38,248 bases of DNA from a virus (taxonomy: Duplodnaviria > Heunggongvirae > Uroviricota > Caudoviricetes). The notes under the pieces are model-generated. The model was not told the origin of the DNA, made no database searches, and worked only from the letters and a program-made list of their open reading frames with translations. The position numbers were made by a program, and so were the translations under genes. The DNA is taken from IMG/VR virus record IMGVR_UViG_2617270960_000007; one strand, given 5' to 3'. Shown piece by piece: positions 1 through 32,707 of this stretch (position 1 is its first letter; each line of letters begins with the position of its first letter).

Positions 1-1002
1 TTACCCTCTATTGTCAAAAGGGTTCAATTCAACAGCAGCCTCTAAATGACCTGGAGCAAAATGCGCATAACGCATAGTCATTTTTATATCGCTATGCCCC
101 AGTATTTTTTGCAACACAAGAATATTTCCGCCCCGCATCATAAAATGACTGGCAAACGTGTGACGTAGCACATGAGTTAATTGCCCATCAGGAAGCTCGA
201 TCTTCGCTCTCTTAATTGCAGCGTCAAAAGCCTCATAACATGGTGAAAATAGCGCTCCTCGTTTTTTAGGAAGCATAGCTTGCAATTGAGGTGAAATCGG
301 TACAGTGCGGTTCTTCTTTCCTTTAGTTTTAACAAATGTGATTCGACCGGGCAGTACTTGAGATTGCTTTAATCCTTCTGCTTCACTCCACCGAGCACCA
401 GTCGCAAGCCCAATACGGACAACAACCCCCAAATCTTTATTCCGTGACTCATCACACGCAATCAGAAGGCGTTCAATCTCATCTACATACAGAAACGCCA
501 GTTCCTTTTCTTCCTCACGAAACTTGCGAATACCAGTCAGGGGGTTTTCACCAGACCACTCTCCAAGGCGCTTCAGTTCGGCAAAAACAGCATGTAGATA
601 TGACTGCTCGCGATTAACGGTTGCTTCACTAAGTTTTTTCTTCCCCTTGGGATTCCATTCTCCTGATAGCCTTCTTTCCCGATAAGTAGCAAACATATTT
701 TTGTCAAACTGAGAAGCAAATGGATCTCCCAGCCTGGAACAAATCGCCTCAAGTTTGACTTTGCGCTCTGCACCAGAGGACAAGGTTTTACCGTACATCT
801 CAAACCAACGAGCAATCAACTCAGAAAGACGAGGACCAGAACCATCTTGAAACTCGTCTCCAACTCTACTATTCATTAAACGGCGCTCATAAGAGAGCGC
901 CTCACTTTTTGTCGCAAACTGTTTACGAATGCGTTTTCCCGATGCCCCGTAGGGATAACATTCGCAAAGCCATTTACCTGATGGAATCTTACGAACCGAC
1001 AT
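1..1002 (-). CDS. int: Phage tyrosine integrase (P2 Int family)
   Basis: 333-aa ORF ending ...HVLRHTFASHFMMRGGNILVLQKILGHSDIKMTMRYAHF, the R-H-R-Y catalytic signature region of tyrosine recombinases; first gene of a P2-like prophage layout; stop codon at window pos 1-3. Confidence 0.9.
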   Translation of the reverse strand: MSVRKIPSGKWLCECYPYGASGKRIRKQFATKSEALSYERRLMNSRVGDEFQDGSGPRLSELIARWFEMYGKTLSSGAERKVKLEAICSRLGDPFASQFDKNMFATYRERRLSGEWNPKGKKKLSEATVNREQSYLHAVFAELKRLGEWSGENPLTGIRKFREEEKELAFLYVDEIERLLIACDESRNKDLGVVVRIGLATGARWSEAEGLKQSQVLPGRITFVKTKGKKNRTVPISPQLQAMLPKKRGALFSPCYEAFDAAIKRAKIELPDGQLTHVLRHTFASHFMMRGGNILVLQKILGHSDIKMTMRYAHFAPGHLEAAVELNPFDNRG

Positions 1003-1007
1003 TTTAG

Positions 1008-1355
1008 TTACTTATCACATAAATCAAATGCAGCCTTAGTGACATCCCCCAGACTCTTTTTTAACCCTGGGGCGGCATCATTATCTAGCCAAAATGGATT
1101 ATTGTTATCTAACGGTAACGCACCAAATGTTTTACCTTTTATTCGAGCCAAACCTGTAAGTGCATATAACTTATTATCGTCAAAATTCATCACATAAGGA
1201 TTACCATCAAGACACTGTAATTGAACCTCATCAGTATTAAATGGCCATACCCCATTGAAACTCTCACGTTCAATAGTTTTAAAAGGCATTGCGACGGCGG
1301 AAAAAGAAAACATAGATAAAAAAGTAACTAATAGTTGAACCTTTTTTACTTTCAT
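1008..1355 (-). CDS. Secreted periplasmic protein, YebY-like (DUF2511-type), prophage cargo
   Basis: 115 aa with N-terminal signal peptide (MKVKKVQLLVTFLSMFSFSAVA), two Cys (near N-domain and at C-terminus); motif WPFNTDEVQLQC resembles E. coli YebY from memory; GGAGG-like SD upstream; AT-rich. Confidence 0.6.
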   Translation of the reverse strand: MKVKKVQLLVTFLSMFSFSAVAMPFKTIERESFNGVWPFNTDEVQLQCLDGNPYVMNFDDNKLYALTGLARIKGKTFGALPLDNNNPFWLDNDAAPGLKKSLGDVTKAAFDLCDK

Positions 1356-1384
1356 ATCATTACCTCAATTTAGCTCAAGTAAGA

Positions 1385-2035
1385 TTACAAATTAAAAAAC
1401 GCCCTAGAAATGACACCGCCTACCAAACCCCCTACGCAGATAAAGAATATTATTTCTTTTGGATAAAGTCGGATTAATTCTGAAGCACGAAGTCGGACTT
1501 CTGGTAAGGTCGAACTCTCTGTGTGGCTTGATGCCGATTGTTGCTCTAACCACGACAATGCAGACTGTAACTGAGAACGAGTAAGATCGTTTAAACGTCC
1601 TGTACCGAAATTGATATGGCAATACCGCAGAAGTTTTTGTCGAAGTCCACAGTCTTCACTGTTACGTAGTAATAAACTTACAAGAGCCTTACAGGCATCA
1701 TGATCTTTACATCGCTCAAGCATTGCATGCAGAAAACTCTCCGCTGTTTTATATTGATTTACTGTCATATCATCAATACCAGCTACACCAATCTCCGCAT
1801 GTACTTTTTGCCAAATAATAAACGCTTCAGTATTGCTAGCTTCTGCAATAGCAGCAACCAAGCTATTTAGCTCCTTACGCTGAGCCTTAAGCAAAGGGCG
1901 ATCGTCATCATCATTATTCGAAGGGATTGCGATATTGACGGTATGAGAACCATCATATCGCTCTATCTGAATATTCTTTTCGTGAAAATCACGCCCAGCA
2001 ACGCGATTGTTTGAACCGTTTGAGTTGACGGCCAT
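1385..2035 (-). CDS. Hypothetical protein with C-terminal transmembrane anchor, co-transcribed with repressor
   Basis: 216-aa ORF with strong SD (GGGAGG) 6 nt upstream of ATG; C-terminal hydrophobic helix IIFFICVGGLVGGVI; N-terminus carries motif NNRVAGRDF that repeats the C-terminal motif of the upstream repressor; AT-rich. Confidence 0.6.
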   Translation of the reverse strand: MAVNSNGSNNRVAGRDFHEKNIQIERYDGSHTVNIAIPSNNDDDDRPLLKAQRKELNSLVAAIAEASNTEAFIIWQKVHAEIGVAGIDDMTVNQYKTAESFLHAMLERCKDHDACKALVSLLLRNSEDCGLRQKLLRYCHINFGTGRLNDLTRSQLQSALSWLEQQSASSHTESSTLPEVRLRASELIRLYPKEIIFFICVGGLVGGVISRAFFNL

Positions 2036-2050
2036 GTCACCTCCCTACTA

Positions 2051-2455
2051 TCACCTACCCTTAGTTTCGTTATAGTCACGACCAGCGATACGGTTATTAC
2101 CACCAGAAATATTTAACTCACGTCCTGATGGCTGAGTTTCCTTTTCACTGATCGCACCTTTTAAAGCCCCAATCACCGCGTTTTTCACATCTAACGAAGC
2201 TGCTCGAAAGCGAGTAATCAATTCCTGCTCATCATCGTTATAAGTTTCAGGTGAGTGAATTCCCAACACAACATACTGAACATCAAGGCCAAAACGAGAC
2301 AGCGCTGCCAAATACGCAGCATCAGGAAAGCTATCTCCTTTCTCATATCTAAGCTGAGTTAGCTTTTTGACTCCACCAATGTCGCTCATGGCAACTTGAC
2401 TAAGTCCCAATCTTTCCCTTTCCTCACGCAACCGCTGACCAATATCATTTTTCAT
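2051..2455 (-). CDS. HTH (XRE/Cro-C1 type) immunity repressor
   Basis: HTH segment IGQRLREERERLGLSQVAMSDIGGVKKLTQLRYEKG; position and orientation match P2 C / 186 cI (transcribed toward int). Start at Met codon 2453-2455 preferred (MKNDIG...); the ORF could extend to 2530. Confidence 0.7.
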   Translation of the reverse strand: MKNDIGQRLREERERLGLSQVAMSDIGGVKKLTQLRYEKGDSFPDAAYLAALSRFGLDVQYVVLGIHSPETYNDDEQELITRFRAASLDVKNAVIGALKGAISEKETQPSGRELNISGGNNRIAGRDYNETKGR

Positions 2456-2465
2456 ACAAAAAACC

Positions 2466-2494
2466 TTGACAGGTATCTTTTTTGATACCAAAAT
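2466..2494 (+). promoter_or_regulatory. Immunity switch region: candidate -35 TTGACA, perfect palindrome GGTATC-N6-GATACC (operator-like), weak -10
   Basis: TTGACA at 2466-2471 immediately followed by inverted repeat ggtatcttttttgatacc (2472-2489) between divergent repressor and early operon. Confidence 0.4.
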
Positions 2495-2531
2495 GATTTC
2501 ACGAGCTATTAGATGATCACAATATACCACT

Positions 2532-2738
2532 ATGAAACAAGTTCTTCACGATACCAGATCACGCATTCCGCGTAACACCGCCACAGGTCCAAGACTGGCA
2601 CTTCGGCTGTCCCTCGAGGAGCGAGCCGTCATTGATGAAATGGCAGCTAAAGAACAACGCTCATCCTCTAACATGGCGCGCATGATCTTCCTTCGCGGCC
2701 TAGAGCTAACCCAGAAAGAACAAAACAAATCTTCCTGA
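2532..2738 (+). CDS. Small early regulatory protein (Cro/RHH-like), first gene of rightward early operon
   Basis: 68-aa basic protein divergent from repressor; sequence LSLEERAVIDEMAAKEQRSSSNMARMIFLRGLE suggests a small DNA-binding fold; position only. Confidence 0.45.
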   Translation: MKQVLHDTRSRIPRNTATGPRLALRLSLEERAVIDEMAAKEQRSSSNMARMIFLRGLELTQKEQNKSS

Positions 2739-2754
2739 TCAGGAGGCTAGTGGG

Positions 2755-2958
2755 ATGTCAGGTATAACCATCAATATCAATGTGAATGCCCCCTATGTAT
2801 CCCTGCAGAAATATGCAGAGATAACAGGTATCCCTCTTAATACATGCAAAAAGATGTTGGCTGACGGTCGAATTATTATCCGCCCCAAACGCGCCAAAAT
2901 GGAAAAGCCTGAAGTAAACCTTGTGGCGATGTTAAAAGACGCTTTGGCTAACAGCTAA
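2755..2958 (+). CDS. cox: Cox/excisionase-like HTH protein
   Basis: 67 aa; segment YVSLQKYAEITGIPLNTCKKMLADGRIII resembles the HTH region of P2 Cox as recalled; SD GGAGG upstream. Confidence 0.5.
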   Translation: MSGITININVNAPYVSLQKYAEITGIPLNTCKKMLADGRIIIRPKRAKMEKPEVNLVAMLKDALANS

Positions 2959-2979
2959 AACAATGAACAGAGCACCATC

Positions 2980-3330
2980 ATGAAAAAAAACGCTAATAAT
3001 CCATACTCCAAATTTCGTAATGGCGTAGAACGCCATGTACACCACGTCGCTACCAGTGCATCACGTAGTAACATTCGCTATAACCTGAACGAGACGCACG
3101 CAACACCGGATGGCCACGCTGTAAAACAAATCGGCGAACATGCCTGGCTGATTGAGAAAGCTGGAATCGTGGTCCACAAATGCCCACGCAATCCGTTTAC
3201 CGGAAACCGCATTTTTGCATTGAACTGCGGCGACAATCACTTCGGGCAGGATTTCACATTATACGAAGCACTTCGCACGGTTGATCGTCTGCTTCGCGGG
3301 CAAAGTTTTATTAAACAGGCTGATTTTTAA
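2980..3330 (+). CDS. Hypothetical early-region protein
   Basis: 116-aa ORF in rightward early operon; no recognisable motif. Confidence 0.5.
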   Translation: MKKNANNPYSKFRNGVERHVHHVATSASRSNIRYNLNETHATPDGHAVKQIGEHAWLIEKAGIVVHKCPRNPFTGNRIFALNCGDNHFGQDFTLYEALRTVDRLLRGQSFIKQADF

Positions 3331-5278: not shown

Positions 5279-5400
5279 GAAACCAGAACATGCACACACA
5301 AAAAAACCGCTTGCCATGCCGCAATCGGTCAGGTTACATTTCCGCTGCACCTCATAAAACGGGTGCCGGGATTCTCAACCCGATACAGAGCAAAGCGCAT

Positions 5401-5421
5401 AACCGCGCAAGCGGTTTTTTT
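5401..5421 (+). terminator. Rho-independent terminator-like hairpin (GCAA tetraloop) with T7 run
   Basis: aaccgc-gcaa-gcggtt followed by ttttttt; its 14-nt arm is the exact reverse complement of aaaaaaccgcttgc at 5301-5314. Confidence 0.4.
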
Positions 5422-5600
5422 GTGCGTACTGTATTGCCACGTCTTTTTCGCGTCAGAATTATGGCGGGGCGTACGGGGCCGACTTCGGTCGGGCCGGATT
5501 CTTTGCTCTCCGGTGTTGAGAACCCTGTACGTCTCGCCACCCCGAGATTCTCAACTCTGGATGGTGAGTTATTTCTATCACCGAGCAAAGAGGCCACACC

Positions 5601-5831
5601 ATGGCAGACCGCAAACAGCACCGCGCTATCGCGGAGCGTCGTCACATCCAGACTGAAATCAACCGCAGACTTTCCCGCGCATCACGCGTCGCGCAAATCA
5701 TGCACATCAATATGCTGCATGAGCGCAGCCACGCACTATCAAACATTTATTCCGCCTCTGTTTTCAGCTATCTGGCGGATGATCTGCACGAGCTTCAACA
5801 GCTCATCCAGCAGCAAAACAAACTCCATTAA
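5601..5831 (+). CDS. Hypothetical early-region protein
   Basis: 76-aa ORF after a 320-bp structured intergenic region; SD-like AAGAGG upstream. Confidence 0.45.
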   Translation: MADRKQHRAIAERRHIQTEINRRLSRASRVAQIMHINMLHERSHALSNIYSASVFSYLADDLHELQQLIQQQNKLH

Positions 5832-5903
5832 TTCCTGTTCCGGGCCTTTCCTGCACCTTGCGGCGGGAGGCCTTCGCACATCTGTAGTAAAGAGAATTGC
5901 AGC

Positions 5904-6293
5904 ATGATTGACGCTCATGACTTCACAAGATGGGTGCGCACACAGGACACCCGTCTGGCTCCCGTTCTTCAGGGGTTATTTGATCTCTACATCCGTGGTC
6001 GTGACAACAGAGCACGCACCACAAAACCGGAGAATGCAGACACCCTTTATTTCACAGTAGACGACTGCTACCGCGTGGATTTCACACCACACGGACTGGC
6101 GTTGCACTGCCTGACACCGCACGGCGAATCACTGCTGGCGTATTACGACTCCCCGGCCTCCGTGTTTGCAGCAATGCTGGCGCATCGCACTGCTGGCGGG
6201 TGTGCCTCGCTGAGTGAATACACCGCTGAATTTAACCGCCTTTCCGCCCTCTTCTCGCAGGAGTGGCAGCGCGTGACGGGATACCAGCCATGA
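5904..6293 (+). CDS. Hypothetical protein preceding replication gene A
   Basis: 129-aa ORF; stop overlaps A start (ATGA). Confidence 0.5.
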   Translation: MIDAHDFTRWVRTQDTRLAPVLQGLFDLYIRGRDNRARTTKPENADTLYFTVDDCYRVDFTPHGLALHCLTPHGESLLAYYDSPASVFAAMLAHRTAGGCASLSEYTAEFNRLSALFSQEWQRVTGYQP

Positions 6294-9073
6294 GTGCGTT
6301 TGCATGGAGCTGGAATGAACCACGACCAGCTATTGATCCGGCCAGATTTACGGAGCGCAGGCAGGAAACTGAAACCGACCTGCAACGCGCCATCCGTTAC
6401 TACCTTGAGGCGGACAAAAGGGCACAGGAAGAACAGGAAGCGAAGGAAGAAGCCTTTTTCGCACAATCCGCCATGGGTAAAAAACTCATGGCATCCCTTG
6501 AGGAAGCCGGACAGCGTGAAAAGCTGGCACAGAGCATCATCAGTAAGCGCCGGGCAACAGAACAAGACCCGGTAGCCCGTGCCTTTGCCACACTGAAGGC
6601 GCTTCCCGTTTATCTGCGAGAACCTCTGAGCCGCCACCTCTCTTTCCTGCGCAAGAAGCAGGAAGCCGATCGTCAGAAAGGCAAAAAGAGCTGGCAGGCG
6701 GAACGCTATACACGCGGAACCCTGCGCAAAATATTCGAACGTCTGGATCGCACTGACGGGCGCTGGCTGACACCTGGTTATCGCTCCCTTGCCGGACGCG
6801 AACGCCTGGACGATTTGCTTTACCTGCCGCAGCTCAACAAACACCAGATACAGACGCTGGCCACCATGACGGCGGCGATGTTCAGCAGCACCTTCGAAAA
6901 ACTCTGCGATGGCTTTGGCGCGACCGATGGCGAACTGACCATGGATGTAACGCTGAAGGCGTATCAGATGCTGGCCCGCATGGCGTTACACCTGCACATC
7001 ATGCCCCCACATTATGACGCACTGACAACAGATAAAGACCGGAGGAACGAACCGGACACGGAGCTGCTGCCGGGCGCAATCCTTCGCCTGACCTGTACGG
7101 AATGGTGGAAACGCAAACTGTGGCTGTTACGTTGCGAGTGGAGAGAAGAACAACTCCGCGCCGCCTGTCTGGTTTCCAGAAAAACATCGCCCTATCTGAG
7201 CCAGGACGCATTAAGCGAGTTTCGCGCACAGCGCGAGAAAACACGCGATTTCCTGACAAGTTTCATGCTGGAAAACGAAGATGGGTTCACGATTGATCTC
7301 GAGACAGTGTATTACGCGGGAGTAAGTAACCCGGTTCACCGTAAGGCAGAAATGATGGCCACCATGAAGGGGCTGGAACTTCTGGCCGAAGCCCGTGGCG
7401 ACAAAGCGGTGTTTCTGACTGTCACCTGCCCGTCAAAATACCACGCCACAACAGAGAACGGTCATCCGAATCCCAAATGGAACGGGGCCACCATGCGCGA
7501 CTCCAGCGATTACCTGGTTAACACGTTTTTTGCGGCGGTCCGCAAGAAACTGAACCGCGACGGCCTGCGCTGGTATGGCATCCGCACGGTGGAGCCTCAC
7601 CATGACGGCACCGTGCACTGGCATATGATGGTCTTTGCTCATCCGGAAGAAATCGACACTATTGTGTCCCACACCCGCGATATTGCCATTCAGGAAGATC
7701 GTCACGAGCTGGGTGATGATATTACCCCACGCTTTAAGGCGGAGTACGTCGACGGCTCAAAAGGCACACCGACCAGCTACATCGCCACCTACATCGGGAA
7801 AAACCTGGACAGCCGTGCCGTGGATGGCATCGACCCGAAAACGGGCAAGCCACGCGTTGACCACGAAACCGGAAAATCAATGGCCGAGAGCGTGGAACGC
7901 GCCATCGGCTGGGCGCGCCTTCACCGGGTCCGCCAGTTCCAGTTCTTTGGCATCCCCTCCCGCCAGGTATGGCGTGAACTGCGCCGCCTTGCCAGCCAGA
8001 TGGCACGCAACCCAGAAGGCCCGCAACGGCTGAAGGATGACGCAATGGATGCGGTTCTTGCCGCCGCTGATGCCGGATGTTTTGCCACCTACATAGAGAA
8101 ACAGGGCGGCGTACTTGTTCCACGCAAAGACTACCTGATTCGCACCGCCTACGACCTCGCCGATGAGCTGAACGATTACGGCGAACAGAGCGTACAGATT
8201 TACGGGATCTGGTCACCACTCATCGGGGAATCCTCCCGTGTGTGCACGCATCCGGATAACTGGAAGCTGGTAAGACGCAAACCGGAAGCGGAAGACAGTG
8301 CCCGCGAAAATGGTTTTGACCTTCAGGGCGGCCCTGCCGCCCCTTGGACTCGTGGCAATAACTGTCCCCGTGTACAGGAAACGGACAACAACGGGACAGA
8401 ACAGCCGGAAGAACGGCCAGCACCGTGGCCGCAGCTCCCTGACGGCGTTGAAGTGAACGAATGGATGCGCTCACTGAAACGGCACGAACGCCGGGCGCTG
8501 ATGCGTTCGCTTCGTGACAAACAGGCAAAAAACAGCAGTGATGAAATGCAGAGCTGGACACAGAGCCGCAAACAGCAGCGGCCTTTGCCTGATAACCACG
8601 AATTACTCGCTAAAGAATGGCGGGAATCTGCCGAATCTCTCGGCCTGCATATCGGTGAACAGCAGATGCAGCACCTGTTACGAGGCGGCAGTCTGTACGT
8701 TGACGGCAGCATCATTGCACCGCAGGGATTTGAAATTGTACGCAAACCAGATACCCGACCGGACAGCCGAATCACGCAGCTCTGGCAGCGCCTGAGCCGT
8801 AATCACGGCGTAAACAGCACGGAAATCCGCCATAACCCGGTTTCCAGCTATCTGAAACAGCTCGGGGCATCAGACCCTGAAGCCGCTGCACGCCTGGCAT
8901 CCACAATTCAGCAGGACCAGAACACCATGAAAACTCCCGTTACCGTGCTTTCTGACATGCTGCGCGCCATCCGTGACGCAGAGCACGCACAGAGAATCAA
9001 TGAAACCACTGAACGCGCACGTCACAAGGCGGGTCTGTTGCAGGACAAAGGCAATAGCGAGAAGAAAAAATAA
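6290..9073 (+). CDS. A: Replication initiation endonuclease, P2 gpA family (rolling-circle HUH nickase)
   Basis: About 927 aa; HUH-like motif VHWHMMVF and tandem-tyrosine region SYIATYIGKNLD typical of P2 A / phiX174 A-type nickases; synteny after early ORFs. Confidence 0.85.
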   Translation: MSAFAWSWNEPRPAIDPARFTERRQETETDLQRAIRYYLEADKRAQEEQEAKEEAFFAQSAMGKKLMASLEEAGQREKLAQSIISKRRATEQDPVARAFATLKALPVYLREPLSRHLSFLRKKQEADRQKGKKSWQAERYTRGTLRKIFERLDRTDGRWLTPGYRSLAGRERLDDLLYLPQLNKHQIQTLATMTAAMFSSTFEKLCDGFGATDGELTMDVTLKAYQMLARMALHLHIMPPHYDALTTDKDRRNEPDTELLPGAILRLTCTEWWKRKLWLLRCEWREEQLRAACLVSRKTSPYLSQDALSEFRAQREKTRDFLTSFMLENEDGFTIDLETVYYAGVSNPVHRKAEMMATMKGLELLAEARGDKAVFLTVTCPSKYHATTENGHPNPKWNGATMRDSSDYLVNTFFAAVRKKLNRDGLRWYGIRTVEPHHDGTVHWHMMVFAHPEEIDTIVSHTRDIAIQEDRHELGDDITPRFKAEYVDGSKGTPTSYIATYIGKNLDSRAVDGIDPKTGKPRVDHETGKSMAESVERAIGWARLHRVRQFQFFGIPSRQVWRELRRLASQMARNPEGPQRLKDDAMDAVLAAADAGCFATYIEKQGGVLVPRKDYLIRTAYDLADELNDYGEQSVQIYGIWSPLIGESSRVCTHPDNWKLVRRKPEAEDSARENGFDLQGGPAAPWTRGNNCPRVQETDNNGTEQPEERPAPWPQLPDGVEVNEWMRSLKRHERRALMRSLRDKQAKNSSDEMQSWTQSRKQQRPLPDNHELLAKEWRESAESLGLHIGEQQMQHLLRGGSLYVDGSIIAPQGFEIVRKPDTRPDSRITQLWQRLSRNHGVNSTEIRHNPVSSYLKQLGASDPEAAARLASTIQQDQNTMKTPVTVLSDMLRAIRDAEHAQRINETTERARHKAGLLQDKGNSEKKK

Positions 9074-9253
9074 CCAAGAAAGAAATCATCAATTGTATGA
9101 AGGTAGAGTTTAGACATGGTAAGGACGTTCCATGAGGCACACTGTAATTTCATATAGTATTCCTCTTCCCTGTTTGATAAAAAAGTGCAATACTATAAAT
9201 AGTCCAGTTAAATGCTTTTTCAATTCACTTAAAATCAAGAGGTTACAGTTAAG

Positions 9254-10375
9254 ATGGGCGACTTAGGTGGTATTCAGTCAGATTTAGCCCAACTAGTTAG
9301 ACTGGTAATAACTGAACAGTATGATGACGTTCGGTTATATGTCGCTCGCTTGGTGCGTAAATATCGGGAAACTATGCCTGCTCTATCCGAGCAGCTTGAT
9401 CTTTATCTACGAAATAAACCGCAAAAGCCTGCACAAAGCCTGCGTAAGGTTACCGCACCAAAACAAGCGCTGCCTCAAACCATGCCTGTGGACGAGGAGT
9501 CAAGGCTTACCTTGCTTAAAGCACCAAATGAAAAGATTGTGAGCAAACCTCTACTGTCCAGTCAGATAGAAGACTCACTGGATCAAATTATTCTTGAGCG
9601 GAAGCACATCGATCGCCTCAAGACTCTCGGCTTACAACCAACACGCTCTGCCATTTTTGTTGGCCCTCCGGGTGTAGGTAAAACACTTACGGCAAGCTGG
9701 TTAGCTCAGAAATTAGGGGTTCCTTTTTACGTTCTTGATTTAACGGCAGTAATGAGCAGCTATCTGGGCAAAAGCGGAAATAACCTTCGGGCAGCTCTAG
9801 ATTTTGCGAAGAAAGGGCCGTGCGTTCTTCTGTTAGATGAAATTGATTCAATCGCCAAAAAGAGAAGTGATGATTCTGATGTTGGAGAATTAAAAAGACT
9901 TGTTACCGTAATACTCCAGGAGGTTGACGAATGGCCGTCTTCTAGTTTGTTACTTGCTGCAACTAACTTCGCTGAGTTGATTGATCCAGCACTATGGAGA
10001 CGTTTTGATTTAGTGCTCAATTTTGAGAAGCCAGATAGCGAAAGTATTAAAGAAGCAATTAAACGCTTTTCAGGTCCCGACTACGCGATTTTTGCACGTT
10101 GGATAGATCTACTGGCTATTATGTTCAAAAATGAATCTTTTAGTAATATTGAGCGTTCTATCAACAAATTCCGACGTTCGGTCGCTTTAGGTATTTCCTC
10201 AGATGAAGAGTTGATTGGGTCGTTCATTAAAGATGGTTTATCAGAATTAGACAGGAATGAACGTAAAGAAATTGCAGTTACTCTAAAAAGAAATTCTAAA
10301 TTATCCCAGCATGCCATATCAGACTTAACCGGAGTCAGTAGGGATACAATTAGAAAATACAGTCAAAAAATGTAA
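9254..10375 (+). CDS. AAA+ ATPase (classic clade) with C-terminal HTH; candidate defense-system ATPase
   Basis: Walker A GPPGVGKT (aa 137-144), Walker B VLLLDEID (aa 191-198), sensor ATN (aa 236-238), second-region-of-homology ALWRRFD; C-terminal LSQHAISDLTGVSRDTIRKY HTH-like; own AT-rich promoter region and SD AAGAGG; AT-rich. Confidence 0.85.
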   Translation: MGDLGGIQSDLAQLVRLVITEQYDDVRLYVARLVRKYRETMPALSEQLDLYLRNKPQKPAQSLRKVTAPKQALPQTMPVDEESRLTLLKAPNEKIVSKPLLSSQIEDSLDQIILERKHIDRLKTLGLQPTRSAIFVGPPGVGKTLTASWLAQKLGVPFYVLDLTAVMSSYLGKSGNNLRAALDFAKKGPCVLLLDEIDSIAKKRSDDSDVGELKRLVTVILQEVDEWPSSSLLLAATNFAELIDPALWRRFDLVLNFEKPDSESIKEAIKRFSGPDYAIFARWIDLLAIMFKNESFSNIERSINKFRRSVALGISSDEELIGSFIKDGLSELDRNERKEIAVTLKRNSKLSQHAISDLTGVSRDTIRKYSQKM

Positions 10376-10398
10376 TACAGCATAGATAAGGAGTATGT

Positions 10399-12624
10399 AT
10401 GGCGAAAACTAATTTTCTGATTGGACGCGGCGAATTATTAACCAGCGATATTCCTGGTCCTAAAAGAGTGCCCGGAAAAGCTGAGGTTTATTCTCTTTAC
10501 GAATCGAAACAACGGTTATTGCCGCAAATTGCATCTACTATAGAAAATTTTGATGATTTACCCAGTCAGGCATGTCCTTATGATTATGCTGTGGCTAAGT
10601 TGACGTTGAATCCGAGCTATATTGCACGCTCTTTTTTTCCTGCAAAAATGCTTAAGTCTACCGGGTTAACGTCTATTGGCAGCAGGACGGTAAAAATTAC
10701 GCCTCAAAGCTGGAAGCGAAAAGTTACTGTGTCAGAAGTAACTACGACACAAATGTTTGTTGCTGGTAAAAGAGAATCCTTCAAAGAGTTACCTCATTGG
10801 GTGTCAGGACTCAAAGAGTTTTCTGACGAAGCGATTGATTTTGCACGCATAGAACGGTTCGATGCCTATTTACCCGAAGAGCGTATTATTACCATTGGTG
10901 AGCAGGATTCTTCGTATTTTGAGGTTGGTGTTCATTTACTGCCAGATAATGAACAAGACTTGGTTCAGCAACAATTTGTTCAGTTTGCATCAAATTTGAA
11001 CATCAAAGTACATACTTCATTAGCTTTTACCGCTGGTACATTATGGTTCGTGCCAATCCAGGCCGATAGAATTACTATTAGTAAGCTTGCGAAATTTACA
11101 TTTGTACGAGTAATAAGACCGGTTCCAAGATTGCGTGGGATTAGACCAATACAAAGGAACTACGGTCCTTTAGCTCAGTGTAAATTGCCTGCTGAGGGCC
11201 CCGTATCTTCAGAAATAAAAGTTGCGATTCTTGATGGTGGTTTACCATCAGAGCACGCTATATCGCCATGGTTAAAATCCTATAGAGTTTTGGACGATCA
11301 TGCAGAGGATGATCCAGACGGTTTAGAGCATGGTTTAGCTGTGTCTTCAGCCTTTTTATTTGGACCAATAAGTAATAAATCGGAAGCGAAAAGACCATAC
11401 TCTTATATTGATAACTTAAGAGTTTTGGACAACAAGACCTGCCAAGAAGATCCGCTGGAACTATATCGAACTTTGGGCTTTATTGAAGAGGTATTGTTGT
11501 CTCGCCAGTATCAGTTTATCAATCTAAGTTTAGGTCCAGACCTACCAATTGAAGATACGGAAGTTCATGCATGGACTTCCGTTATTGATGATTTGTTAAG
11601 TGATGGTGAAACATTAATGACTGTTGCTGTTGGCAACAATGGAGAAATGGATCGCAAGTCTGGTAATGCAAGAATTCAAGTACCAGCCGATTGCGTTAAT
11701 GCTCTTGCTGTTGGTGCTTGTGATACAGTTAATGATACGGAATGGAAACGAGCACCATATAGCGCCATTGGGCCAGGCAGAAGTCCTGGCGTGATGAAAC
11801 CGGATTTAGTTGCGTTTGGTGGTGACACAGACGAGTACTTTCATGTTTTAGGTAAAGGTAAGAAGCCTGTAATCATACCCCAGCTAGGAACAAGCTTTGC
11901 CTCTCCTTACGCCTTACGAGCAGCTGTTGGTGTTCGGGCAATTTTAGGGAACGATTTGAGCCTACTAGCAATCAAAGCTTTGTTAATTCATGCGTCAAAA
12001 CAGCTTGATCATCCTTGTACAGAAGTTGGCTGGGGAAAACTTCCTGAAGACTTGAACGACATTATAGTCAGCCCTGATGGTGTTGCCCGTATCGTCTACC
12101 AAGGTGAATTGAAACCAGGAAAATACTTACGCGCTCCTCTTCCAATACCTGAAGGTGGCTTGAAAGGTAGAATAAACTTAGCGGCAACTTTCTGTTATGC
12201 AACAACCACTGATCCACAAGACCCAGCTTCCTATACAAAAGCTGGTTTGGAAGTGACATTCCGGCCAAATGATTCAAAAATCAAAGACGGAAAACAAAAT
12301 GCTGAAACCAAGGGATTCTTTGAACTGGCCAAATATTCAACTGAAAGTGAGCGACGTTCTGACATGGGCAAATGGGAGACCGTCTTACATAATTCGAAGA
12401 ACATGCTAGGTTCAACTCTAAAAAATCCTGTATTTGACATTCATTATAACGCTCGTGAGGCCGGTGCAAGCATAGCCAGCCATAAGGCAGAAAAAATCAA
12501 GTATGCTCTTATAATTACCATTAAGGCATCAAAGCACCAAGACCTGTATAACGAAATTTTACGTACTTATAATCAGGTGCTCGTGCCAATTCAACCGCAA
12601 ACATCAATTCCTATTCGTTCGTAA
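10399..12624 (+). CDS. Subtilisin-like serine protease (peptidase S8) with about 270-aa unknown N-terminal domain
   Basis: Catalytic triad motifs in S8 order: VAILDGG (Asp about aa 279), HGLAVSS (His about aa 311), GTSFASPYA (Ser about aa 499), oxyanion VGNNGE (Asn about aa 413); 24 nt after the ATPase gene, same strand; AT-rich. Confidence 0.85.
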   Translation: MAKTNFLIGRGELLTSDIPGPKRVPGKAEVYSLYESKQRLLPQIASTIENFDDLPSQACPYDYAVAKLTLNPSYIARSFFPAKMLKSTGLTSIGSRTVKITPQSWKRKVTVSEVTTTQMFVAGKRESFKELPHWVSGLKEFSDEAIDFARIERFDAYLPEERIITIGEQDSSYFEVGVHLLPDNEQDLVQQQFVQFASNLNIKVHTSLAFTAGTLWFVPIQADRITISKLAKFTFVRVIRPVPRLRGIRPIQRNYGPLAQCKLPAEGPVSSEIKVAILDGGLPSEHAISPWLKSYRVLDDHAEDDPDGLEHGLAVSSAFLFGPISNKSEAKRPYSYIDNLRVLDNKTCQEDPLELYRTLGFIEEVLLSRQYQFINLSLGPDLPIEDTEVHAWTSVIDDLLSDGETLMTVAVGNNGEMDRKSGNARIQVPADCVNALAVGACDTVNDTEWKRAPYSAIGPGRSPGVMKPDLVAFGGDTDEYFHVLGKGKKPVIIPQLGTSFASPYALRAAVGVRAILGNDLSLLAIKALLIHASKQLDHPCTEVGWGKLPEDLNDIIVSPDGVARIVYQGELKPGKYLRAPLPIPEGGLKGRINLAATFCYATTTDPQDPASYTKAGLEVTFRPNDSKIKDGKQNAETKGFFELAKYSTESERRSDMGKWETVLHNSKNMLGSTLKNPVFDIHYNAREAGASIASHKAEKIKYALIITIKASKHQDLYNEILRTYNQVLVPIQPQTSIPIRS

Positions 12625-12638
12625 TCCTTCAAGACATA

Positions 12639-12668
12639 ATGCCCCTCAATTTGAGGGGCATTTCTTTG
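12639..12668 (+). terminator. Rho-independent terminator of the ATPase/protease cassette
   Basis: atgcccctc-aattt-gaggggcat hairpin followed by ttcttt. Confidence 0.6.
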
Positions 12669-13067
12669 CACAAAAGCGCACAAATTTGCACAATTTTTTT
12701 GAACGACTTTTTGCCCTTCCGGCCCGCATGGCGGCTGGATCGGTCAAGGATCCGTGCGTGCACAAAAAAACGCGCTTTTTCTGCGCGCAGGTGACGGGGG
12801 AACAGCCCGCGTTTCAGGGGGTAAATAGCGTCCCCTTAACGATGTCGCAGCGACACGACAGAATGGCCGTATTTCTCACGCTGAGCGTGAAAAATACGTG
12901 AGGGATTCTGATTTGATGGGGTGAAAGGTAAGGCCGTCAAAATCGCACTGAGGCGGCGAGAACATGCAGTCAACGCGGTGGGATTGCGTAAGAGTCTGAC
13001 CGTCGATGGTGGCGATAAGCTGGAAGACGTCGTGAAATTATCTGACTGATACAGGAGCTGGAGAGTC

Positions 13068-13117: not shown

Positions 13118-14164
13118 TCAGGATGTGGGCTGAGTGTCCAGCAGTGCGTAAGGGTTAAAGCGGATCACCTCTTCGCCAAGCCAGTCATTGATATGCTTCA
13201 TGGCCTCCATTACGGGCATCAGCTCGTTAATTGCATAAACCCGCGCTGCCTTCTCCACATCACCAAACGCACTTTTTTCGCCCGGCATCGCCCCCATCAG
13301 TTGCGGCGGAACGCGGTGCGCAGCCAGCACATCATCACGGGATGCCGCCTTAACATTCATGAACTCATCCTTTGCGGTGATCTGCTGGAACGGCAAAATT
13401 TGCACCCCCTCTTTGCCCCCGTTGGGCGCATGAATGAGCACGTTTTTAAACGCACCACCACCACGCGCACCCTGTAGCGTTTCTTTCAGGGAGTCCATGC
13501 TTTCGCGGTTTACCTGCGCTGCACCGATGTAGATGATGCACCCGGCGTGGGATCCGTTGTCGTAATACAGTTTTCTGAACATGTCCGCCGAATGAGACAG
13601 GCTGGCCGAGAGTAATGCGCCAAGATATTCCGGCATGCCGTAGATTTCCTGGTTAATGTCCGGATTCATCAGGTGGCACACTTTGCCAGGGCGAAACTGA
13701 AACGCGTCCTTGCCATCCTGCACATACCACCATGATTCAAGATCGCTTCCGCGTCGCATGTATTTCGCCAGGGCGTGTCGTAATTTAAGCGGTTCGCCGA
13801 GCATATTGCTCCGAAGCTCAAGGAATGCGTTACCGAACACAAACCAGTCCAGCGCCAGCGCCGAGAAATCCTGCCGGGAAAGCAGCGGGTGCGGAATATA
13901 GCAGCCGAGCAATACATTGCGCTTAAAGTAAAGCGCAGACTGATGCCAGGACGTTTGCCGGGCAGCTCTTGCCAGACCGTACCAGTCCACCGGGGTTTCG
14001 TACCACCGCCCGTTATCAGCACAGTACATATTGTCCAGCAGGTCATGCCCGGTCAGGCGATAAGGACCATCAAATGTGAATGCACTGAGCGATGATTCTT
14101 TCCTGAGCGCATCAGCGAGATCAATGCGTGAATTCATGCGCACTTTTTTATTTTTTCTGCTCAT
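13118..14164 (-). CDS. Q: Portal protein (P2 gpQ family)
   Basis: 348 aa; size, minus-strand orientation and adjacency to terminase match P2 Q. Confidence 0.85.
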   Translation of the reverse strand: MSRKNKKVRMNSRIDLADALRKESSLSAFTFDGPYRLTGHDLLDNMYCADNGRWYETPVDWYGLARAARQTSWHQSALYFKRNVLLGCYIPHPLLSRQDFSALALDWFVFGNAFLELRSNMLGEPLKLRHALAKYMRRGSDLESWWYVQDGKDAFQFRPGKVCHLMNPDINQEIYGMPEYLGALLSASLSHSADMFRKLYYDNGSHAGCIIYIGAAQVNRESMDSLKETLQGARGGGAFKNVLIHAPNGGKEGVQILPFQQITAKDEFMNVKAASRDDVLAAHRVPPQLMGAMPGEKSAFGDVEKAARVYAINELMPVMEAMKHINDWLGEEVIRFNPYALLDTQPTS

Positions 14165-26974: not shown

Positions 26975-26980
26975 CGTTAA

Positions 26981-27475
26981 TCAGAACAGCCCTTTAACTG
27001 AACTGGCCGCGCTGTTAAGAGATGATGTCACCTTATCTTTGAAGCCGGACAGCATATCGCTGAACGATGAGGATTGCAGGCGTTCCCGCAAATCCTCATC
27101 ACAGCGTTCAAGGGTTAGTGAAAATTCTATCTTTTTCGCCTTACCGTAGCGATCAAACTCGGAACGGGTCGTATTCGTTCCGGTCAGGACATACATGCCG
27201 TAAATCTGCCCGACGCCATCAATCAAAGGCCAGGGTCGTCCTGTATACGCCTGCGTGGTCAGCAGCGACAGCGACACTTCGCCACCTGTAATTTCAGGAT
27301 AAAGCACACCAGAAAGAACGATGCGATCATCACCTGCACCGATATACTGCCAGCTTGCTGAACGGTTAACGCGTTCATTTTTCACATGCCGCCAGCTTTT
27401 GTGTTGCTGTAACTGCTGATGCGGCAGCGTGCGCAGCTCAAAAACAAACATGCCGTAGATCATCATCATGGCCAT
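26981..27475 (-). CDS. U: Tail protein U (P2 gpU family)
   Basis: 164 aa; immediately downstream (minus strand) of tape measure. Confidence 0.8.
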   Translation of the reverse strand: MAMMMIYGMFVFELRTLPHQQLQQHKSWRHVKNERVNRSASWQYIGAGDDRIVLSGVLYPEITGGEVSLSLLTTQAYTGRPWPLIDGVGQIYGMYVLTGTNTTRSEFDRYGKAKKIEFSLTLERCDEDLRERLQSSSFSDMLSGFKDKVTSSLNSAASSVKGLF

Positions 27476-27481
27476 GACTCC

Positions 27482-30298
27482 TCAATCTTTATCGTAAAAA
27501 CTGCCACGCCCGGCACGGGCGCGCCGTTCCATTTCTGCCCTGACCATTTCACCGACCAGTTTCGCCAGTTCGCGGGGATTCTGCGTAACAACGTTATGCA
27601 GATGAACATGAATTTCACCGCCAAATCCTGAGGCAACAGGTTCCCGGTTACGCGAAGGTGTTGGGGCTGATGCCACTGGCGATCGTATGGCCTCCGCCAC
27701 CGGGCGGGAGCTGGCCGCAACAACAGGGACCAGCGCCGGAGGCAGCGGGGCCGGAACCACAGGCGTGATATTAATTGCGGGGGCAGGCTTACTGACCTGC
27801 GCAATCTTCCGCTCCTGCCACTCCCCACGAACGGCAAGTGCGCGGGGCAGGTTCTTAAAGACAATATCGCCGGGGCCAATGCGTTTTTTCGTCTCATCAA
27901 CCAGCTTACCTGTGTTATCAGCAATTTTGCTGAGCCTGCGTAGCGTACCGGTATTGCTGTCTGTGAGCGGTTTATTATCTTTGGGTTTATCACCTCCGGT
28001 GCCATTGCCATTTTCTACAGGCTTCGGCGGATTGATTTTCGCCAGGTCCCCCTGAAGCAAGGCAACCTTGTCCTGGAGAATAGCCGCACGCTGTGCGTCT
28101 TCGATTTTCTTTCTCGCCCTTTCCGCTTCATCCGGAAGCACACCGAGTTTTTCAAGTATCCACGCCAGCGTATCCAGCAACATTTTTGCAGGCGTCAGAA
28201 CAAGCTGTAACGCGCCACCAAGAACGTTACCGAATATCTCGCCAGCACTGGTACATTTATCCAGCGTTTCCTTGCTGGACTCCATCGGTGACAACAGCGA
28301 TTTAAACCAGTTAAACACCTGGCTGATCCCGCTTCCGATTGCGTCAAAAACAGGACCAAACCGTTCAAAGGTTTCGCGCAACGGGGTCAGCCTTTCCATA
28401 ATCCCGCTGAACACCCCGGCAAAAAATGCCCTGATGGGATCCCAGTATTTCCAGATGAGAACGGCAGCTCCGGCAAGCGCAGCCACGATAAGACCGACCG
28501 GACTGAACAACGCCCCGATAGCGCCCCCCAGTAACGAAACGGAACCCGTCACCATTCCCCATAGTGCTGGCAGGAGTCTGACAGCATTCATTGAACCAGT
28601 CAGGAGGGAAAAACCAAGACGCAGTTTTGCCAGTGGGCCAGCAAGCACACCAAGAGCAAGCGACAACGAGCCTACGGTTGCAGTCACTGCCAGCAGCGCA
28701 CCGCCTGCAATCAGTAGCTGGCGCGTCAGTACAGGATGGGCCTGCGCCAGTGCCGTCACCTTTGAGACCACCCGCGTTAGCCACTGCGTGACAGAACGCA
28801 GCGGACCGTCAACCAGATCACTGATGCGAATACGAAGACCTTCCCATGCGCTGTCGAGATTTTTCAGGTCGCCATCAAGGTTGTCGGCCATAACCTTTGC
28901 CGTGCGTTCAGCCTCACCGCGTGCGCCCTCAAGTTCTTTTCTCAGTTTGGGTAAGGAACCGTCCCCCGCCGCATCAACGAGTGCCATAAACGATGTGAAA
29001 GCCTCTTCCCCGGCGATGTCCTTAAAGAAGGATACCCGGTCAACTTCCCCGTATTTGCGGGTAGCTTTATAAAGGTCAGCCAGCAGATCTTCCATCGGGC
29101 GCATTTTGCCCCCGGCATCCGAGACGGACACGCCCAGCTCTTTCAGAGCTTCTGCCGCCGCCTTTGGCGGTGATGCCAGACGAGCCAGGCTGGCACGCAT
29201 TGCCGTCCCGGCATCACTCCCTCTGATGCCCATATTCGCCAGCACGCCCGCCATCGCTGCGGCCTGCTCCAGCGATATTCCCAGCTTACCCGCCACCGGA
29301 CCTGCATATTTCATGGTTTCGCCCAGTGCGCGAAGGTCAGTGTTGGTACGGGTAAACGCTGCGGTGAGTGTGTCACCGACCCGGTCCATCTGGTCAGCAG
29401 AAAGGCCGAACTGCGTCAGGATATTTGAGCCAATATCTGCCGTTTCGCCGAGATCCATACCGCCAGCCGTTGCCATGCTCAGTACGCCGGGAAGCGCAGC
29501 CTGAATGGCCTGCGGAGTGAAGCCAGCCATTGCAAGAAATGCCTGCCCACTGGCGGCATCGCCTGCAGTGAACTGCGTTTCAGAGCCAAGTTTTAACGCC
29601 TGCTCACGCAGCGCCTTAAACTGCGGGCTGTTTTTGTCGATTCGCGTCAGAGCCTGAACGCGGGACATCTCTTTCCCGAACCCAATCGCGGGCTGCAAAA
29701 AACGCCCGGCAGCATAGCCGCCCGCCGCTGCCGCACCTATAGCCAGTGCACCACCTGTTTTCAGTTTTCCCGCGGTTTCCTGCGCACGCGAATACCGCTC
29801 ACGCGCCCGCGTTACACGCGCAAGCGCCTGCCGTTCGTGTTCAAGCTGGTTGTTGTACTGTTCGGTGCGTCTGATGGCCTGCTGGATGGTGTTATCGCTG
29901 CCTGTCAGGGAAATGCCGTGGCGTTTCAGCTCTCCGCCAAGCTCCCGCATTTTCTGAATTTCCCGTGTGCGCGATTCATTCAGGCGTTCAAGCCGGGTGC
30001 TTAACTGCTGCATCAGCTTTTGTTGTTTTTCGCTGAGCACTGTACCCGTACGTTGTAACTGATTAAGGGCGTTAAGCTGGCGTCGTGCTTTCACGATACC
30101 CGTATCCGCTTTACTGACAGCGTCGCGGGCGCGCTCAAATGATCGCGCCTGACGCTCGAGATTTTTGATCGCCCCCTGCGTTCGCTGGATGGAGTCACCA
30201 AACTGCCCCATCAGGCGGCGGGCGTTTTCGGCAGGCCGGGTCAGCCTGTCAACGGCGCTGAAAGCGACCCGGATATCAAGAGTCTTCATTATCTGCAT
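27482..30298 (-). CDS. T: Tail tape measure protein (P2 gpT family)
   Basis: 938 aa; long coiled-coil N-terminus, multiple hydrophobic/Gly-Ala-rich central segments; follows E/E-prime. Confidence 0.9.
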   Translation of the reverse strand: MQIMKTLDIRVAFSAVDRLTRPAENARRLMGQFGDSIQRTQGAIKNLERQARSFERARDAVSKADTGIVKARRQLNALNQLQRTGTVLSEKQQKLMQQLSTRLERLNESRTREIQKMRELGGELKRHGISLTGSDNTIQQAIRRTEQYNNQLEHERQALARVTRARERYSRAQETAGKLKTGGALAIGAAAAGGYAAGRFLQPAIGFGKEMSRVQALTRIDKNSPQFKALREQALKLGSETQFTAGDAASGQAFLAMAGFTPQAIQAALPGVLSMATAGGMDLGETADIGSNILTQFGLSADQMDRVGDTLTAAFTRTNTDLRALGETMKYAGPVAGKLGISLEQAAAMAGVLANMGIRGSDAGTAMRASLARLASPPKAAAEALKELGVSVSDAGGKMRPMEDLLADLYKATRKYGEVDRVSFFKDIAGEEAFTSFMALVDAAGDGSLPKLRKELEGARGEAERTAKVMADNLDGDLKNLDSAWEGLRIRISDLVDGPLRSVTQWLTRVVSKVTALAQAHPVLTRQLLIAGGALLAVTATVGSLSLALGVLAGPLAKLRLGFSLLTGSMNAVRLLPALWGMVTGSVSLLGGAIGALFSPVGLIVAALAGAAVLIWKYWDPIRAFFAGVFSGIMERLTPLRETFERFGPVFDAIGSGISQVFNWFKSLLSPMESSKETLDKCTSAGEIFGNVLGGALQLVLTPAKMLLDTLAWILEKLGVLPDEAERARKKIEDAQRAAILQDKVALLQGDLAKINPPKPVENGNGTGGDKPKDNKPLTDSNTGTLRRLSKIADNTGKLVDETKKRIGPGDIVFKNLPRALAVRGEWQERKIAQVSKPAPAINITPVVPAPLPPALVPVVAASSRPVAEAIRSPVASAPTPSRNREPVASGFGGEIHVHLHNVVTQNPRELAKLVGEMVRAEMERRARAGRGSFYDKD

Positions 30299-30799
30299 TC
30301 CCGCTGCGAAGTGCCGCCCGCTCGCGCCAGCTAACCACTTCGCCGGGCGTCATCATGAAGATTTCGGCGGGCGACCAGTTAAAAATGGCGGCAATATCCG
30401 CCACAAAGTCTTCTATGTGCTCAAAGCACACAACCGTGATCAGGCTTCCGTCGCCTGTTCGTTCTTCCCGCCAGAGTCCGCACCGCTCAAAAAATTTACG
30501 GCAACCACACATAACTGAATAAAGTCACGGGATGCCATTTTTTTGATCGTCACTTCATCCAGTCGCGGTGATGTCACGCGTGACAGCAGCGTAAACATGG
30601 ATTCCGCTTTCAGATTCAGCACATCAGACAGCGACAAATCTCGCAGAGATCCAGCCTGCTCAATAGCCCCGGTGATCTCCACATACGTGATTTTTTCGCC
30701 GCCTCGCTCAATTGGTTGGGTAAGTTTTACGCCACGCTCACTGGTTTCTTTCACAGTGTCAGTAACTACCGTGTTATCGATGTTTTTCGTCTCTTTCAT
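30276..30799 (-). CDS. E: Tail assembly chaperones E and E+E-prime (programmed -1 frameshift)
   Basis: E frame 30440-30799; overlapping -1 frame ORF 30276-30512; slippery heptamer TTTTTTG on minus strand at 30488-30494 where the two frames overlap, as at the P2 E/E-prime site. Confidence 0.65.
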
Positions 30800-30853
30800 C
30801 AGGAAACTCCTTTCAGTCAGAGGCGACGCACTGCGCCGCCTGCATATTACTTA

Positions 30854-32550: not shown

Positions 32551-32707
32551 AGCTTCAGCCCCTTGTATCCGTTAAATGATTCGGCAACAATCATCACCCA
32601 CCACGCGCGTAATCTCACCCCTGCGCCGTTCTCCCGACCCGGCGACAACAAAAAGCAGTAACCCCCTCTGCACGCACATGCGACCATGCCGCACAGGGAG
32701 GGAACAG

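Follow-up and report, generated by a model that had tools for sequence, protein, structure and literature searches.

An ordinary IetAS cassette as exchangeable cargo in a hotspot of a P2-like E. coli prophage

The segment at positions 9074 to 12668 of the window (the whole 38,248-nt stretch of viral DNA analysed here) is an ordinary copy of the two-gene anti-phage/toxin-antitoxin system IetAS, which a P2-like E. coli prophage carries as exchangeable cargo in a known defence hotspot. The pair belongs to the IetAS family, retains its catalytic residues, is under strong purifying selection and forms a discrete mobile unit within a variable slot. The cassette is probably an intact member of the family that works as a toxin-antitoxin-type abortive-infection system and is borne as cargo of the gpA-gpQ (tin/old) hotspot.

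The IetAS assignment is correct, because both products match the corresponding PADLOC models nearly end to end and the catalytic residues of both do not vary among homologues. The 373-aa protein matches the IetA model PDLC02196 (1e-77, 260 bits) over residues 9–372, equivalent to model positions 5–370 of 374, and the 741-aa protein matches the IetS model PDLC02197 (6.7e-52, 175 bits) over residues 36–726, equivalent to model positions 38–733 of 749. The sole specific NCBIfam matches for the pair are the IteA and IteS anti-phage models, with scores below the equivalog cut-offs (223 vs 510 bits for IteA, 137 vs 900 bits for IteS). As judged by sequence, the pair lies within the wider IetAS family and is not an equivalog of the NCBI reference pair; RefSeq names the proteins just “AAA family ATPase” and “S8 family peptidase” because the equivalog cut-offs are not reached. 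The cassette is not new: the system is named, PADLOC and NCBIfam models exist for it, and the exact pair, WP_000502620 and WP_001140702, was published in the exact hotspot in 2022, entered as a P2 hotspot locus in Table S5 of Rousset et al. The AAA/HTH_50 plus Peptidase_S8 entries of that table show no difference from the cassette, with identical proteins in the identical slot. The same study labels an AAA/HTH_50 plus Peptidase_S8 system of the P2 hotspot ietAS; the entry that bears this label represents another lineage, its IetA being just 43% identical to that of the cassette, so that the P2 hotspot accommodates at least two IetAS lineages. The WP_000502620/WP_001140702 pair is absent from the tested-systems table of that study. 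Identity with the ECOR52 ietAS allele assayed by Wu et al. was considered and rejected, as their primers have no site in the window at 3 or fewer mismatches. The first-pass annotation had proposed an IetAS-type ATPase and S8 protease pair carried as P2 tin/old hotspot cargo; this is borne out by the full-length PADLOC matches, the variable-slot context and the Table S5 entry. Its further suggestion that the extra N-terminal segments and the HTH of the ATPase mark a distinct variant is contradicted by the coverage of the family models (9–372 of 373 residues in IetA, 36–726 of 741 in IetS) and by the lengths of the listed IetS homologues, nearly all 738–741 aa; extensions at either terminus and the HTH are usual in this family.

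The layout is that of a self-contained low-GC two-gene unit, as had been described from the sequence, with a strong terminator and lying between gene A and the portal gene. An AT-rich leader (9074–9253, plus strand, read from the sequence) precedes ietA (9254–10375, plus strand, ATG start, 373 aa, WP_000502620), which is followed on the same strand, after a 23-nt spacing, by ietS (10399–12624, plus strand, ATG start, 741 aa, WP_001140702). The ietA coordinates and DNA in the window are identical to those of the WP_000502620 gene in STEC384. By sequence reading, each start codon has an upstream Shine-Dalgarno sequence, AAGAGG for ietA and AAGGAG for ietS. The one terminator stands after ietS; RNA folding places this intrinsic operon terminator at 12638–12668 (plus strand), with a hairpin at 12638–12662 built on an 11-bp G+C-rich stem (AAUGCCCCUCA / UGAGGGGCAUU) and followed by the U-rich tail UCUUUG. 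The hairpin has a dG of −19.4 kcal/mol and z = −4.83 against shuffled sequences; a simple consensus terminator scan did not report it. The GC content of the cassette is 41.2%, compared to 56.6% for gpA and 53.7% for the following 3.3 kb. In the leader, a weak sigma-70-like match (9/12) occurs at 9174–9203, and such matches in the leader region are not above chance, with 7 found against 7.7 expected from shuffled sequence. It is overlapped by an imperfect inverted repeat (9153–9167 / 9183–9197; 15 nt, 87% complementary), which might serve as an operator for the IetA HTH.

IetA carries the sequence features of a classic-clade AAA+ ATPase, namely GPPGVGKT at 137 (K143), VLLLDEID at 191 (D195/E196), ATN at 236 and ALWRRFD at 246, and matches Pfam AAA at 2.6e-30. 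All of the AAA+ and S8 motifs previously listed for the two proteins were located at the places given for them. Usable homologue alignments contained 41 IetA and 52 IetS sequences at ≥64% identity. Within the IetA alignment, the Walker A K143, Walker B D195/E196, sensor-1 N238 and arginine fingers R249/R250 are invariant; the Y170-L171-G172 pore-loop motif is present, with the tyrosine replaced by leucine in many of the 41 homologues. The AF2 model (pLDDT 77) predicts a three-helix bundle at 3–53, a disordered linker at 57–85, an AAA+ module at about 103–312 and a C-terminal helical HTH at 317–372. The ATPase module is nearest to p97 D2, FtsH, Mpa and the proteasomal ATPases, and the best Foldseek matches of the model are p97 D2, FtsH and Mpa. 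The last 59 aa give weak HTH matches, and the N-terminus returned no Pfam match up to E = 10.

IetS is assigned as an S8 subtilisin-like protease from its Pfam Peptidase_S8 match (residues 271–546, 2.5e-19) and from the motifs VAILDGG at 275 (D279), HGLAVSS at 311 (H311), VGNNGE at 411 (N413) and GTSFASPYA at 497 (S499). The four catalytic residues are invariant across the 52-homologue alignment. By phmmer, D279, H311 and N413 align to the catalytic positions D32, H64 and N155 of subtilisin E. Upstream of the catalytic domain, an alpha/beta region with ferredoxin-like, propeptide-like units is predicted at about 30–241, followed by an Arg/Pro-rich linker at 233–253 that is conserved and invariant; C-terminal to the catalytic domain, an all-beta domain is predicted at about 560–725. 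The structure model of IetS is poor, with a mean pLDDT of 54 and values below 50 in the catalytic domain, and is better at 30–241 and in parts of 560–725; Foldseek searches with this model were uninformative, at TM-scores of 0.1–0.2. The ferredoxin-like fold is a common one, with comparable scores for ribosomal protein S6 and ACT domains. When isolated, the N- and C-terminal regions returned no Pfam match up to E = 10, the I9 propeptide included. Sequence searches of the PDB yielded no IetA or IetS, just generic subtilisins (E about 1e-4) and p97/Cdc48. Among the best 120 IetS homologues listed, nearly all are 738–741 aa in length, with a few truncated entries. In comparison with the Salmonella copy, dN/dS is 0.055 for ietA and likewise for ietS.

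The slot is anchored outside the cassette by the replication gene gpA on the left (6263–9073, plus strand; Pfam Phage_GPA 6e-131) and by the portal gene gpQ on the right (13118–14164, minus strand; collinear with the annotated STEC384 prophage), placing the cassette beside the packaging region. The gpA-gpQ slot of P2, occupied there by tin and old, is a documented defence hotspot. Of 5426 complete E. coli genomes, 44 carry the cassette and 1578 the adjoining gpA segment. In UTI89, O157 strain 180-PT54 and MDR_56 the same slot holds ParM/StbB plus other genes. By blastn against the UTI89 and MDR_56 loci, similarity of gpA to prophages with other cargo ends at 9030–9044, within its last 30–45 nt, and the right junction of the variable segment falls at 12667, directly past the terminator; both junctions are sharp. 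Salmonella P2-like prophages with dissimilar gpA carry a pair 92–95% identical in protein in the same slot. Shuffling of ietA and ietS as separate modules, an idea prompted by the closest non-E. coli IetA homologues being 93–95% identical compared to ~66% for many listed IetS homologues, was rejected, as the Salmonella loci with 95% IetA hold 92% IetS. Megablast against a phage collection gave no match, the occurrences of the cassette all being in prophages and none in deposited phage genomes. A search for the P2 cos 19-mer, tolerating 3 mismatches at most, was negative. By analogy, the cassette would share with tin and old both its position and its ecological role, prophage-borne phage exclusion; the proteins and mechanisms are unrelated, Old being an ATPase-TOPRIM nuclease, and Tin is among the systems that phages escape via mutations in core replication proteins.

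What is known of homologues bears on how the cassette might act. In those of pTiC58 and SGI1, the protease is the toxin and the ATPase the antitoxin. The pTiC58 system resembles the cassette in gene order, with the ATPase gene first and the S8 protease gene close behind on the same strand, in its catalytic motifs and in its IetA C-terminal HTH; the cassette differs in belonging to a diverged lineage, with Ti/Ri-plasmid IetA proteins just 32–36% identical, and in residing on a prophage chromosome and not a plasmid. SgiAT (S026/S025) of SGI1 is, by description, a similar combination of AAA+ ATPase antitoxin and subtilisin-like toxin, with toxin-antitoxin behaviour determined experimentally in E. 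coli; unlike the cassette, it sits on an integrative mobilisable element, where it is reported to maintain the island. IetAS is listed among anti-phage systems by Gao et al. 2020, according to papers citing that work. One IetAS system of B. cereus works through abortive infection, with the SPbeta gene yosG as its trigger. The ietHAS variant (Liu-DS4; NAR 2026) shares the IetA-IetS core with the cassette but has an extra, essential SNF2-type helicase gene, whereas the cassette has just two genes between gpA and the terminator; in that system attempts to make ietA mutants failed, and defence depends on protease activity. The transfer of function from these systems to the cassette is an extrapolation, because the pair scores below the NCBIfam cut-offs and the Ti/Ri-plasmid IetA proteins are so distant. 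The first-pass annotation had called the mechanism of such pairs uncharacterised; this stands for the molecular mechanism, which is still termed unknown in 2026 literature, but not for the toxin-antitoxin roles, the abortive infection and the yosG trigger, all known in homologues.

The same literature bears on the possibility that the pair is mainly an addiction module, stabilising the prophage in its lineage with any anti-phage effect secondary or absent. IetAS was originally reported, in pTiC58, as a plasmid-stabilising toxin-antitoxin system, SgiAT stabilises its island, and the ParM and StbB genes that occupy the P2 slot elsewhere are of plasmid-stability type; the absence of this allele from the systems tested by Rousset et al. 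2022, and of matches to the Wu et al. ECOR52 primers, also leaves room for it. We nevertheless regard a chiefly stabilising role as unlikely: related IetAS systems protect against phages, the P2 slot is a documented site for defence cargo, and SgiAT gave no post-segregational killing from its native promoter. Addiction and defence roles of IetAS are not mutually exclusive.

For the preferred reading, in which the cassette is an abortive-infection system of toxin-antitoxin type, analogy with these homologues suggests that IetS would be the toxic effector and that IetA would neutralise it in a manner requiring its own ATPase activity; a phage product would then release the toxicity, and the infected cell would die or stop growing before phage progeny form. 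IetS resembles a subtilase with built-in propeptide-like domains, and IetA, with its p97/FtsH-type module and Tyr-Leu-Gly pore loop, probably engages IetS in an ATP-dependent manner. By holding or repeatedly unfolding IetS, IetA may prevent the protease from reaching or keeping its active state; once freed, by a phage trigger or because IetA ceases to function, IetS would attack essential proteins of the host or the phage. Like many antitoxins, IetA probably regulates its own operon, through its C-terminal HTH. A more specific version, in which IetS is zymogen-like and matures under its propeptide-like domains and the 233–253 linker, IetA acts as a “kinetic antitoxin” unfoldase, and the trigger may be specific to the lineage, is tentative and rather unlikely. 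Replacement of the pore-loop tyrosine by leucine in many homologues weakens the idea of IetA as an unfoldase, and the lack of post-segregational killing by the SGI1 homologue under its own promoter also counts against the preferred reading. The P2-borne lineage could answer a different trigger than the IetAS systems tested to date, because of its 43% identity to the other hotspot lineage and its sub-cut-off scores. If the kinetic-antitoxin version were true, blockage of IetA or depletion of ATP by any phage product would lead to irreversible proteolysis.

IetA could conversely be an activator or substrate-delivery motor that senses infection, then unfolds targets and feeds them to IetS, in the manner of ClpXP, FtsH or the proteasome; this corresponds to the ATPase-gated protease of the first-pass annotation. 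The kinship of the IetA module with p97 D2, FtsH, Mpa and the proteasomal ATPases and the retention of a pore-loop motif are in keeping with such a role, and the classic-clade ATPase fold and motifs are common to IetA and to FtsH, ClpXP and the PAN/Mpa-proteasome systems. The partner in those machines, however, is a chambered peptidase, whereas that of IetA is an open-cleft S8 subtilase; subtilases are monomeric enzymes with an open cleft, not chambered proteases that need a translocase. The genetics of homologues also run the other way, in that toxicity comes from the protease by itself and is abolished by the ATPase, unlike the activating role of the ATPase in AAA+ protease machines, and the failure to build ietA mutants of ietHAS runs counter to the prediction for an obligatory activator. 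An activator role is thus very improbable. A function of the genes in the phage life cycle (e.g., as a maturation protease or chaperone), or their presence as decaying passengers, might be entertained from their position within a phage genome beside packaging genes and from the “unknown function” annotation of their PHROG families (phrog_3757 and phrog_3964), but is effectively refuted by the distribution data, since about 97% of E. coli prophages sharing the window's gpA lack the cassette, which is therefore dispensable for the phage, and the dN/dS of 0.055 and invariant catalytic residues argue against decay.

As a discovery the cassette adds little, belonging to a catalogued system. IetAS is frequent: PADLOC reportedly detects it in about 29% of S. 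Typhimurium genomes, and 35 of 79 porcine ETEC strains are reported to carry it, yet its molecular mechanism is still described as unknown. The remaining value of the cassette is practical. The allele is native to E. coli and compact, at 3.6 kb with leader and terminator included, and would be a convenient model for the way in which an AAA+ ATPase holds a subtilase in check and for which proteins the protease cleaves.

A P2-like prophage lies in the window, its left end marked by an integrase and its right end by host tRNA genes and pgsA. It carries a two-gene cassette downstream of replication gene A (gpA, 6263-9073; Pfam Phage_GPA, 6e-131). The portal and large terminase genes follow on the opposite strand, as placed by the ORF list and by comparison with a prophage of E. 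coli STEC384. The two forward-strand ORFs, ietA (9254-10375, 373 aa) and ietS (10399-12624, 741 aa), are separated by 23 nt, and a Shine-Dalgarno sequence is readable 5' of each. The GC content of the cassette is 41.2%, against 56.6% in gpA and 53.7% in the next 3.3 kb. A terminator 3' of ietS (12638-12668), comprising an 11-bp G+C-rich hairpin and a U-rich tail, was found by RNA folding (dG -19.4 kcal/mol, z = -4.8), though it was absent from the output of a simple terminator scan. The first-pass annotation, which described a self-contained unit, was accurate as to the ORFs, Shine-Dalgarno sites, low GC and terminator; a dedicated promoter was not demonstrated, the sole sigma-70-like match in a promoter scan (9174-9203) being at chance level.

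The ietA and ietS products match Pfam AAA (2.6e-30) and Peptidase_S8 (2.5e-19), respectively. The PADLOC models for IetA (PDLC02196, 1e-77) and IetS (PDLC02197, 6.7e-52) span residues 9-372 of 373 and 36-726 of 741; at the level of sequence profiles these near full-length matches are decisive for IetAS identity, bearing out the earlier call of an IetAS-type ATPase and S8 protease. Family-specific matches in NCBIfam are limited to the anti-phage IteA and IteS models, the counterparts of IetA and IetS, with scores below the equivalog cut-offs (223 vs 510 bits and 137 vs 900 bits). Because these scores fall so far under the cut-offs, the pair represents a diverged IetAS lineage and no near copy of the NCBI reference pair, in agreement with the identity of just 32-36% between the window IetA and its Ti/Ri-plasmid homologues. 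At E <= 1e-5 the family comprises more than 2261 IetS-like and 4993 IetA-like proteins. Nearly all of the best 120 of the >2261 IetS relatives, from Enterobacterales, Burkholderiales, Nitrosomonas and other hosts, are 738-741 aa long, with an identity of 65% or more. As seen from the full-length models and the uniform lengths of the relatives, the extensions at both termini and the HTH are standard across the family; they are no marks of a distinct variant, as had been suggested for the N-terminal domain and the HTH. In PHROGs, both proteins belong to full-length families annotated "unknown function", and a sequence search of the PDB returned no IetA or IetS entry.

All motifs previously read from the sequence were found at their quoted positions, K143 and S499 among them, and D279, H311 and N413 of IetS align with the catalytic positions of subtilisin. 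The IetA Walker A and B residues, sensor-1 and arginine pair are invariant among 41 homologues, as is the IetS Asp-His-Asn-Ser set among 52. With a dN/dS of 0.055 for each gene against the Salmonella copy, ietA and ietS are, as judged from sequence, functional genes.

Among 5426 complete E. coli genomes, 44 carry the 3.6-kb cassette DNA, in every case on the chromosome and in 43 with at least 99% identity; the adjoining 3' gpA segment is found in 1578. Cargo in this slot, the interval between gpA and the portal gene gpQ, differs among prophages whose gpA is 95-96% identical. In three of them it includes ParM and StbB, accompanied in UTI89 by a ClpX-zinc-finger protein and several hypothetical proteins, in MDR_56 by one hypothetical protein, a DUF4760 protein and an IS element, and in O157 strain 180-PT54 by an IS3 remnant and a rearrangement that come after them. 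In blastn comparisons with such prophages, similarity ends at 9030-9044 and restarts at 12667, directly past the terminator. The pair also occupies this slot in P2-like prophages of Salmonella whose gpA sequence is unrelated (IetA 95% and IetS 92% identical; 86% DNA identity over 9075-12820). The cassette is therefore exchanged as a whole among P2-like phages.

The similarity of gpA to that of ~1350 other E. coli prophages stops 30-55 nt short of its stop codon (9018-9073), placing the exchange point inside the gpA 3' end; each cargo therefore supplies its own C-terminal gpA codons. Damaged cassettes were observed in strains E06 (NZ_CM143910.1) and 7-27 20A (NZ_CP077515.1), one with the IS5-family element ISKpn26 in the S8 gene and the other retaining just the 3' 43%, so the system is occasionally inactivated in nature. 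The STEC384 prophage, with identical cassette DNA, adjoins btuC, and the window prophage adjoins leuZ-cysT-glyW-pgsA; the integrase and immunity end of the latter (window 1-3026) lacks any DNA match in the former. The two prophages thus share cargo and late genes and differ in their integration modules.

Rousset et al. 2022 (PMC9122126) surveyed exactly this interval, with 18,150 occurrences and 1,650 gene arrangements. Their Table S5 enters WP_000502620 and WP_001140702, the RefSeq accessions of the identical STEC384 cassette, as "AAA/HTH_50 + Peptidase_S8", and labels one such hotspot system "ietAS (Gao et al, 2020)". The representative of that entry belongs to another lineage, with an IetA 43% identical to that of the window, so at least two IetAS lineages occupy the hotspot. 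The window pair is missing from the systems tested in that study. Wu et al. noted that E. coli ietAS may be prophage-borne; their ECOR52 ietAS primers have no match in the window. The first-pass annotation was thus right in its observation and main interpretation, and the cassette belongs to a named system and had been catalogued before; it is not new. Its practical interest is modest, as an E. coli-native model for the IetAS anti-phage mechanism, still "unknown" in the literature of April 2026.

The first IetAS to be reported, on pTiC58, was a toxin-antitoxin pair with a stabilising role, the protease being the toxin and the ATPase the antitoxin. SgiAT, the SGI1 homologue, follows this pattern in E. 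coli, where within 30 minutes the protease lowers viability, an effect from which the ATPase rescues the cells. Defence by the helicase-associated variant ietHAS needs protease activity, and construction of its ietA mutants was not achieved; an IetAS of B. cereus works through abortive infection, becoming toxic upon expression of the SPbeta gene yosG. As a working model we infer that IetS is a zymogen-like subtilase, which IetA would hold or unfold in an ATP-dependent manner; a phage product would disable IetA, allowing IetS to mature and kill the cell. The IetA HTH probably autoregulates the operon, possibly via a candidate inverted repeat at 9153-9197. A pure addiction role for the prophage, as in the pTiC58 description, is plausible and compatible with defence. 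The toxicity genetics of the homologues conflict with IetA as an activator or translocase for IetS, and the absence of the cassette from ~97% of related prophages rules out a part in the life cycle of the phage itself.

Two further positions in the window may hold cargo. A 379-aa ORF of low GC (0.39-0.43; 34217-35356, +) lies between tail gene D (32576-33817) and ogr (35646-35906), genes that are neighbours in P2, and may be cargo of a further variable slot; Pfam matches it solely at an N-terminal SEC-C zinc motif (2e-8), PHROGs not at all, and PADLOC gives just weak E2 matches on that motif. Between the integrase (4-1002) and an HTH repressor (2054-2530), the window's lowest GC (0.354) coincides with two small minus-strand genes, 1011-1355 and 1388-2035, encoding a DUF2511 protein (115 aa, phrog_2950) and a 216-aa protein (phrog_5825) weakly matching a family of "moron" membrane proteins; PADLOC matches neither of them, and the site may also be a cargo position. 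Rfam matches at gathering level to the Hfq-binding sRNA isrK (5347-5421, +, 63 bits) and C4 antisense RNA (5457-5544, +, 78.5 bits) lie upstream of gpA in the early region, overlapping ORF 5290-5907. Together they resemble a regulatory RNA module of the isrK/C4 type within a P2-like prophage. The block encoding tail sheath, tube, tape-measure and gpU (26976-32550, -) runs counter to the baseplate and tail-fibre genes, unlike in P2, where these are presumably co-directional; the STEC384 prophage has the same minus-strand arrangement.
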